Part shown: in pieces, positions 59,433-59,702 of the stretch
Layout of the letters: each line of letters begins with the position of its first letter
Position numbering within the stretch: position 1 is the first letter of the stretch
IMG/VR virus record: IMGVR_UViG_3300035180_000254
DNA length: 64,000 nucleotides
Source: a virus
Direction: 5' to 3' (one strand)
Translations under genes and position numbers: made by a program
The notes under the pieces: model-generated
Databases searched by the model: none
What the model was told of the DNA's origin: nothing
Seen by the model: only the letters and a program-made list of their open reading frames with translations

Positions 59433-59702
59433 TCAACCCTCGCCGTAGCCGGAGCCGTTGCCGTTGCCGTAGCCGTAGCCGTTGCCGTTGCCGTAGCCGG
59501 AGCCGTAGCCGGAGCCGGAGCCGTTGCCGTAGCCGTTGCCGTAGCCGGAGCCGTAGCCGGAGCCGGAGCCGAAGCCGGAGCCGTTGCCGTTGCCGTTGCC
59601 GTTGCCGTTGCCGTAGCCGTTGCCGGAGCCGAAGCCGGAGCCGTTGCCGTTGCCGTTGCCGAAGCCGGATTCTTCGGCGAACTGCTTACTTTTTGAAGCC
59701 AT
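59433..59702 (-). CDS. glycine-rich (G-X)n repeat protein (89 aa)
   Basis: ATG at 59702 lies 7 nt after AAGGAG. MASKSKQFAEES, then about 75 residues of GN/GS/GY/GF dipeptides. Only this frame is open across the repeat. Confidence 0.6.
   Translation of the reverse strand: MASKSKQFAEESGFGNGNGNGSGFGSGNGYGNGNGNGNGNGSGFGSGSGYGSGYGNGYGNGSGSGYGSGYGNGNGYGYGNGNGSGYGEG
59436..59672 (-). repeat. hexanucleotide tandem repeat (GCCGTT/GCCGTA/GCCGGA/GCCGAA) with a higher-order period of about 60 bp
   Basis: Directly visible. Successive 60-nt stretches start CCGTTGCCGT and end GCCGGAG. Confidence 0.85.

Follow-up and report, generated by a model that had tools for sequence, protein, structure and literature searches.

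The 64,000-nucleotide (nt) viral sequence IMGVR_UViG_3300035180_000254 from IMG/VR (here called the window, meaning the whole stretch at its full length) carries at positions 59433 to 59702 a gene whose product is built almost entirely of glycine-X dipeptides. We refer to it as the Gly-X protein. The window is a phage genome, encoding a terminase, a P22-like portal, a capsid protein, DNA polymerase A, an SNF2 helicase, and a VapE/DUF5906 primase-helicase. The Gly-X open reading frame (ORF) is located in its minus-strand replication/early block, where it overlaps the end of a gene of the DUF6948 family. The features that make up the locus are the following.

59433..59702, minus strand: Gly-X repeat protein gene, 89 amino acids (aa), 8.2 kDa, pI 4.8, with ATG at 59702-59700 and TGA at 59435-59433
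59439..59666, minus strand: Gly-X array of 38 GGC-NNC hexamers (GN x15, GS x10, GY x9, GF x3, GE x1)
59667..59702, minus strand: polar N-terminal head MASKSKQFAEES, counterpart of the family motif M[AST]SKNKxF[TI]DG, which is kept in dozens of related loci
59710..59715, minus strand: Shine-Dalgarno sequence AAGGAG, 7 nt ahead of the ATG and within the last codons of the DUF6948 gene
59686..60060, minus strand: DUF6948 gene, 124 aa from MNIEELT, matching Pfam PF22253 at E 1e-28
59686..59702, minus strand: 17-nt overlap of the two genes, with the Gly-X frame at +1 relative to DUF6948

A first-pass annotation, made from the letters of the window alone, had proposed an 89-aa Gly-X ORF here with a strong ribosome-binding site; the coordinates, strand, and ATG start are exact, as is the AAGGAG at 59715-59710 with its 7-nt spacer. 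The protein consists of the 12-residue head MASKSKQFAEES, 38 Gly-X units, and a terminal glycine, and its composition is dominated by five residues (G39 N15 S13 Y9 F4). Glycine is kept in all 38 units of the array and is encoded by GGC every time; the X codons are AAC, TCC, TAC, and TTC. The X residues (N15, S10, Y9, F3, E1) include no cysteine, and the sole charged residue is the last glutamate, so that the earlier description of an array free of Cys and charge holds up to that final position. Twelve [GS][YF][GS] motifs fall within its 76 residues. Tandem Repeats Finder (TRF) reports a period of 6, 37.7 copies, and a score of 256. The higher-order units of about 20 aa that had been proposed find support in the autocorrelation of the X string at lag 10, which is 0.57 versus 0.27 in shuffles (z 3.8, p 2e-4 uncorrected, 15 lags); the corresponding 60-nt period is weak, and TRF and a repeat finder detect hexamer multiples only. 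The annotation had further held that only this frame is open, with stops in the plus-strand frames. Stops across the array do occur on the plus strand, in frame +1 only, and four of the other five frames are stop-free as well, each without a start codon.

The same AAGGAG-N7-ATG layout is present in the close relatives of the window locus, and an identical Gly-X protein is encoded on two other Joint Genome Institute (JGI) contigs. Downstream of the module, gene content appears from sequence to differ among these close relatives. One JGI contig with an identical Gly-X module (L081, Ga0373634_0000372, 87.5 kb) has a phage integrase about 1.7 kb downstream, where the window has a metallophosphoesterase.

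We examined how regularly the two genes occur together in a set of loci anchored on DUF6948, comprising 80 IMG/VR contigs found by searching with the window neighbor, 9 contigs from metagenome-assembled genomes, and 4 records of isolated phages. A Gly-X ORF or its remnant begins at the end of the DUF6948 gene, on the same strand, in all 92 informative loci; apparent exceptions turned out on checking to be contig ends, variant arrays, or very short arrays. In nearly all of the 80 IMG/VR loci, the motif M[AST]SKNKxF[TI]DG starts within the last DUF6948 codons and is followed by (Gly-X)n. The nine metagenome-assembled contigs with the pairing include Ramlibacter, Cellvibrionaceae, Rubritepida, Steroidobacteraceae, and Planctomycetales, and the GenBank record of Chlorobiaceae phage CV-1-33 has the same arrangement. 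The pairing also holds at only 36-40% DUF6948 identity, in the isolated phages Ralstonia NK-7, Pectobacterium Koroua, Iodobacter phiPLPE, and Vibrio IKEMa6-1. The Koroua partner is an overlapping 89-aa hypothetical protein. In phiPLPE (NC_011142; L094:1164-1409, between gp84 and gp83), an 81-aa Gly-X ORF directly follows the DUF6948 gene gp84 and is unannotated in RefSeq. The NK-7 partner (PP919442, XCO36015.1; L092:2153-2566) is annotated as a "fibroin heavy chain-like protein," a label that rests on composition, not homology.

Two further DUF6948 subfamilies gave the same picture, with a Gly-X protein right after DUF6948 in 77 of 77 and 76 of 80 loci; the family as a whole comprises about 2,279 clusters at 50% identity. 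The association can also be read from the other side. A search with the Gly-X protein identified 34 proteins that are alike in the repeat alone and have unrelated N-terminal domains. Among seven such repeat-only proteins whose context we inspected, six lie directly after a short DUF6948 gene, mostly overlapping it. The seventh (P0001) has its array in mid-protein and no DUF6948 directly upstream, and its architecture does follow DUF6948 in human-gut phage contigs. Thus, what is constant across loci is a DUF6948 gene followed by a gene with a Gly-X array, and the flanks of the array differ: nothing, an N-terminal domain of about 60 aa, or a helix and a C-terminal domain. The first-pass annotation had not picked up this invariable pairing, which is the chief clue to function.

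The junction between the genes ranges from overlaps of 4-17 nt (4-16 nt in the distant loci) to a short gap, with the Shine-Dalgarno sequence inside DUF6948, and the Gly-X gene is probably translationally coupled to the DUF6948 gene. A programmed frameshift joining DUF6948 to the array (+1 frame, at TTC AAA AAG TAA) was considered and set aside: the A-run is just 5-6 nt, and separate initiation is accounted for by a well-spaced Shine-Dalgarno sequence and start codon. A single natural DUF6948/Gly-X fusion, P0007, was found. A second candidate, L069, was discarded, since its array is a separate ORF, probably with a GTG start. In an alignment of the wide DUF6948 family against P0001 (hhalign), the match was confined to the repeat of the fused row. 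DUF6948 proteins match positions ~146-231 of phrog_18306 and the Gly-X tail of P0009 matches positions 44-128, which suggests, at the level of sequence, that this group includes a member with a Gly-rich stretch N-terminal to DUF6948.

Codons are near-uniform within an array and differ between phages. The GGC-NNC scheme was seen in 51 loci, GGC-NNT in 30, GGT-NNC in 6, and GGG-NNC in 3, and the dipeptides are always GS, GY, and GD. Because codons are uniform within arrays and the schemes of different phages are synonymous versions of the same dipeptides, we conclude that arrays are homogenized and that selection acts on their amino acids. Across the family, the X position is S in 37% of cases, Y in 30%, and D in 24%, with N at 2.5%, Ala at 1.3%, K and R together at 0.7%, and H at 0.3%. 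Histidine is this rare although CAC is one mutation from GAC, AAC, and TAC. Although Tyr codons are one mutation from a stop, disrupted arrays are few, about three in all: L020, L021, and the degenerate L078. In L020 (4330-4720), DUF6948 has lost its stop codon and two stops interrupt the Gly-X frame, and in L021 (420-700) there is a frameshift within the array; these two copies could be pseudogenes or assembly errors. Judged from these comparisons, the Gly-X gene is real, in our reading translated, and selected as a protein. The earlier suggestion of a real gene in an early operon is likewise borne out.

Glycine codon choice in the arrays has a bias of its own. GGC makes up 88% of Gly codons in arrays family-wide versus a median of 42% in flanking genes, and in a contig of 25% GC (L098) the figures are 97% in the array versus 5% in its other genes. 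Array serines are encoded by TCY 1011 times and by AGY 23 times. Homogenization within arrays leaves the recurrence of this GGC/TCY choice in unrelated phages unexplained. The contigs L029 and L030 are identical up to mid-array and unrelated beyond, which marks a mosaic recombination junction in the repeat. This breakpoint, the GGC bias, and the four other stop-free frames would all fit a DNA-level element, for example a hotspot of slippage or recombination or an array of hexamers bound by a protein, in which the open frame is incidental. We regard such an element as very improbable, given that the same dipeptides are spelled by different hexamers (GGCTAC, GGCTAT, GGTTAC, GGGTAC), that start codon, Shine-Dalgarno sequence, and stop are conserved, and that gut-phage arrays are without exception followed by a conserved domain in the correct frame.

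The first-pass annotation had flagged the hexamers as prone to slippage and proposed a comparison of repeat lengths among relatives. The length polymorphism is very large, and the indels stay multiples of 6 nt. L016 and L018, whose flanks are identical, differ by array indels of 6, 24, and 6 nt plus substitutions, and L065 and L067, also with identical flanks, differ by a net 36 nt. A further sample comes from human-gut contigs (L104, L107-L168), in which the array is internal: MEEQIREFLSIYS precedes it, and a conserved domain of ~150 aa (IKTFNGDKVYIIDD...), without a match in Pfam or PHROGs, follows it. The 54 complete loci of this kind with DUF6948 at least 95% identical contain 51 different arrays, 11-137 aa long and differing in length by multiples of 6 nt without exception. 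The C-terminal domain behind the array is always in frame, and Gly deviates at 5 of 1862 positions. In our reading, array length and order drift freely by hexamer slippage, with composition and reading frame kept.

This freedom of length raises the question of whether the array is a plain flexible spacer, an entropic linker of arbitrary length, with the stand-alone genes being leftovers of larger proteins that lost their folded domains and retain little function. The gut-phage arrangement, in which arrays of 11-137 aa connect a conserved N-terminal helix to a conserved C-terminal domain with no visible length constraint, is what one would expect of a linker, as are the architectures with a ~60-aa N-terminal domain ahead of the array and the very short stand-alone versions of 16-28 aa. 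However, a neutral linker should admit Ala, Thr, Pro, Gln, and Lys, and X is 91% S/Y/D here; Tyr accounts for 30% in each lineage. In prokaryotic low-complexity regions at large, aromatic residues are under-represented (PMC6821194). In addition, stand-alone arrays retain their start codon, Shine-Dalgarno sequence, and head motif in dozens of loci and in distant phages. We consider a plain spacer unlikely, though it is the alternative that we take most seriously.

The window copy departs from the family in its X residues, which are N 39%, S 26%, Y 24%, and F 8%, with no D, K, or R, versus family means of 24% for D and 2.5% for N. It is the only Asp-free array among the stand-alone arrays examined, with AAC (Asn) replacing GAC (Asp). 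Other Asn-rich arrays occur in L008, L188, L201, L204, and L205, but there Asp is still present. The head is of the usual kind: MASKSKQFAEES fits a short Lys-containing head ending in an aromatic residue, for which the motif above holds in the close subfamily, and relatives have MASKNKTFTDG and similar sequences. The window array is uncharged and resembles a prion-like domain, a state that may have arisen by drift through array turnover or by a functional shift.

Such a composition invites the idea, already raised in the first-pass annotation, of an autonomous prion-like or condensate protein, in which the Gly/Tyr/Asn/Ser array would form droplets or cross-beta polymers by self-association, with no part played by the neighbor. 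The Asn-rich, uncharged window array with its 12 [GS][YF][GS] motifs fits this idea, as do the absence of predicted structure in the array and the strict Gly-X alternation, a silk-like pattern that has earned one homolog its fibroin label. Self-association is opposed, however, by the strong acidity of most family members; arrays often comprise just 5-20 units; and the strict coupling to DUF6948 speaks against a protein that acts alone. On balance we find this possibility rather improbable, and somewhat more so than the acidic decoy considered next.

The acidity of the family suggests instead a mimic or decoy of nucleic acid, in which Asp every 2-4 residues would stand in for backbone phosphates and Tyr for stacked bases. 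Such a protein would occupy the binding surface of DUF6948, much as the acidic tip does in Hfq, or that of a host DNA- or RNA-binding protein, possibly a defense protein, and its variation in length and sequence might be driven by escape. Consistent with this, Asp (24%) and Tyr (30%) are frequent at X and Lys/Arg almost absent, arrays are extremely diverse among near-identical phages, and the acidic tail of Hfq regulates that protein's own RNA binding (PMC11617691). Against it, the window array has no Asp (Asn 39%), close relatives such as L002 are only ~12% acidic, array acidity runs from 0 to 50% without co-varying with the charge of the DUF6948 core, and a PADLOC search returned no match. 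We therefore judge mimicry unlikely.

The first-pass annotation had also compared the protein to Gly-rich microcins. Small size and Gly-rich composition are all that a secreted microcin, bacteriocin, or ribosomally synthesized and post-translationally modified peptide (RiPP) precursor would share with it, as is the case for MccB17 and the class IIb microcins. Unlike these, the protein lacks Cys and any Ser/Cys-Gly pattern suited to heterocyclization, its head of 12 polar residues contains neither a double-glycine motif nor another leader, and the surrounding operon contains no maturation, export, or immunity genes. The gene is instead tied to an early module of intracellular type, and its conserved partner is a small barrel protein of cytoplasmic type found in phages of many hosts. 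The analogy fails on these grounds, and we find a secreted peptide of this kind barely credible.

Structure prediction gave different results for the two partners. The AlphaFold2 (AF2) model of the Gly-X protein has a predicted local distance difference test (pLDDT) score of 36 and no secondary structure; as it was run on a single sequence, it is weak evidence of disorder, and the protein is most likely intrinsically disordered. The DUF6948 model, built on a 30-sequence alignment, reached pLDDT 86 and a predicted template modeling (pTM) score of 0.70, and consists of an N-terminal helix and five bent strands, with an extra helix between strands 3 and 4. When this model was compared with the Protein Data Bank (PDB) using Foldseek, the top 50 matches were all Sm/LSm proteins (eukaryotic LSm/Sm subunits and archaeal Sm), at E 2e-3 to 8e-3 and a target-normalized TM-score of about 0.5-0.7. 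The DUF6948 product is thus predicted to have an Sm-like fold; as sequence methods do not pick up this relationship, we do not place it in the Sm or Hfq families. Conservation across the wide family is limited to GVxFG, one Arg, one Trp, and one Gly, and because so few residues are conserved, DUF6948 is better understood as a binding domain than as an enzyme. A catalytic role for His49, Glu108, and Ser113 was rejected, as these are conserved in the close subfamily only. Two proteins (P0169, P0251) carry two DUF6948 domains in tandem, a hint that would fit a self-associating domain.

Taken together, we tentatively favor a reading, possible if short of probable, in which the Gly-X protein and DUF6948 act as a two-protein unit, an Sm-like core with a flexible, Tyr-rich low-complexity arm. 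In this view they would cooperate during early infection: DUF6948 would form the Sm-like core, small, probably oligomeric, and able to bind RNA or single-stranded DNA (ssDNA), and the Gly-X array would serve as the flexible arm, studded with tyrosines and as a rule acidic, either tuning that binding or tying many copies together. Contact between the proteins, ring formation by DUF6948, its nucleic-acid binding, and the role of the module for the phage are parts of this proposal that we infer. A further step, that the Sm-like oligomer and the multivalent, length-hypervariable Gly-Tyr/Ser/Asp protein build an RNA- or ssDNA-containing assembly in infected cells, is speculative and on present evidence unlikely. 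Rapid array turnover could be driven by host conflict.

Several observations weigh against the two-protein unit. The Sm likeness depends on one AlphaFold model and on Foldseek E values near 1e-3, and searches for an Sm/Hfq sequence signal in DUF6948 gave a Pfam SM-ATX match at E 0.24 for one homolog, no PDB sequence match, and an hhalign probability of 0.5% against E. coli Hfq. Small SH3-like barrels are put to many uses. With a median net charge of +1, the DUF6948 core has no marked basic character, and its charge shows no correlation with array acidity (rho -0.14). The single-sequence run limits what the Gly-X model says about disorder. In the gut phages, the array lies internally between two conserved parts, as a plain linker would, and arrays may comprise as few as 5-8 units. 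Finally, the sole DUF6948/Gly-X fusion sits on a 1.2-kb contig.

The closest parallels to an Sm-like core with a Gly-rich arm are eukaryotic Sm/LSm proteins with their Gly-rich tails and bacterial Hfq, whose C-terminal region is Gly-rich and acidic. SmD1, SmD3, SmB, and LSm4 combine an Sm-fold core with a disordered tail of Gly dipeptides in which X is Arg, basic and methylated, and yeast Lsm4 has an Asn/Gln-rich tail. As proposed here for the phage array, the tail of these proteins mediates assembly and partner binding, not catalysis. The phage proteins differ in that X is Ser, Tyr, or Asp, or Asn in the window; in that the array is in a separate coupled gene, with one fusion seen, rather than fused to the core; and in that DUF6948 lacks the Sm sequence motifs. 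FUS-family low-complexity domains are another point of comparison. These eukaryotic domains of ~200 residues carry [G/S]Y[G/S] motifs and are Gln-rich and not strictly alternating. They share with the phage arrays a Gly/Ser/Tyr-rich composition, regularly spaced aromatics, and predicted disorder, whereas the phage arrays are 10-137 residues long and usually Asp-rich. A Gly/Ser/Tyr/Asn-rich, uncharged, and predicted disordered sequence of the prion-like or FUS type describes the window copy but not the mostly acidic family.

The silk fibroin heavy chain, (GAGAGS / GAGAGY)n, has the strict Gly-X alternation with Ser and Tyr at X, yet it is Ala-dominated, thousands of residues long, secreted, and crystalline, in contrast to 1.3% Ala in the phage arrays. 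Database matches were confined to low-complexity stretches, and the likeness is one of composition and not of homology. Collagen-like phage proteins have a Gly-X-Y triplet period, unlike the period of 2 residues (6 nt) in the Gly-X array.

Among bacterial proteins, Hfq of Acinetobacter baumannii has functional GGFGGQ repeats with an acidic tip, and the number of repeats matters (PMC11617691). This protein resembles the phage pair in joining an Sm-like core to a disordered Gly- and aromatic-rich repeat region with acidic residues; it differs in that its repeat is a hexapeptide fused to the core of a host protein, versus a strict Gly-X array mostly encoded by a separate gene in phages. The C-terminal region of E. 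coli Hfq is reported to be amyloid-like and to bridge DNA (PMC12257945). GoF, MotB.1, and Frd.2 of phage T4 are described as early products with an LSm-like fold that influence RNA stability (PMC12152347). Like DUF6948, they are small, belong to the early phage proteins, are predicted to adopt an LSm-like fold, and have a suspected action on RNA, but they have no Gly-X partner or tail, belong to other sequence families, and are not predicted to form a ring (PMC12152347). If correct, our analysis would set the module apart from known combinations of an Sm-like core with a Gly-rich partner by its separate genes, its other array chemistry, and its hypervariable length.

The first-pass annotation could name no characterized phage protein like this one, and our searches of literature and protein families also came back empty. 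We found no paper on DUF6948 or on the Gly-X class, and the paper on the Ymer genus makes no mention of the gene. Searches of Pfam, PHROGs, PADLOC, and PDB sequences with the Gly-X protein returned low-complexity noise only (TrAA12, GS linkers, GR20), and the Koroua protein used as a query at E 1e-6 gave no matches, as the HMMER bias correction removes matches of this kind. Gly-X proteins are a large undescribed class, present in databases as "hypothetical" or "fibroin heavy chain-like" or not annotated at all; the phiPLPE gene is an example of one left out and the fibroin label of a misleading name.

Every DUF6948 subfamily sampled is followed by a Gly-X protein, making the module a common one among phages that infect bacteria of soil, water, and the human gut as well as plant pathogens. 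The arrays are a clear natural case of selection on composition and frame with length and order free. An Sm-like fold, here predicted, with a Gly-dipeptide low-complexity partner is otherwise known mainly from eukaryotic RNA-processing machinery and Hfq. The intracellular assembly, if it exists, would be a bacterial-virus counterpart of granules formed by Sm/LSm proteins with low-complexity tails, spread across phages of Proteobacteria, human-gut bacteria, and other phyla; it would represent an early function of a new kind for phages and a naturally occurring minimal scaffold of the ring-plus-repeat type. The module is present in cultivable phages, namely the Pectobacterium Ymer genus, Ralstonia NK-7, and Iodobacter phiPLPE, which makes these hypotheses directly testable.

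In the window, the neighbors of the Gly-X gene encode NinX, DUF6948, small unknown proteins, a phosphoesterase, and an AAA ATPase. Across loci, the Gly-X/DUF6948 pair sits among genes of replication and recombination, namely Erf/SSB, RecE/RecT, DNA polymerase A, RNA ligase, and primase. The start of the DUF6948 gene is placed further upstream by gene callers elsewhere, at 60105 or 60144. The next gene of the operon is the following.

59160..59429, minus strand: 89-aa gene that begins 3 nt past the Gly-X stop, has no family match, and is not shown to be part of the module

The first-pass annotation had placed the Gly-X gene among overlapping neighbors, which is true of the upstream gene (17-nt overlap) and not of this downstream one, whose ATG at 59429 lies 3 nt past the TGA. 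The two small minus-strand genes at 58927-59163 and 59160-59429 have a common ...TLRAAA..QALEAL.. segment (BLASTP E 0.055) and no family match; by this likeness, they may be diverged tandem paralogs. Just past the Gly-X stop, inside the next gene, lies a weak terminator-like hairpin with a T-run (59415-59400, minus strand), and the count of such sites in the region equals that expected by chance. Promoter and terminator scans of the region likewise gave counts at chance level, a tRNA scan found none, and DNA similarity searches against known phages, near and distant, gave no useful match for the Gly-X region.

Elsewhere in the window, a 2321-aa ORF in the structural block (27754-34719, plus strand) has no Pfam match at E 1e-4. 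The early region also encodes, about 2 kb apart on the minus strand, a DUF2201 protein with a putative metallopeptidase and a VWA-like domain (53082-54188) and a MoxR-like AAA ATPase (56318-57340).

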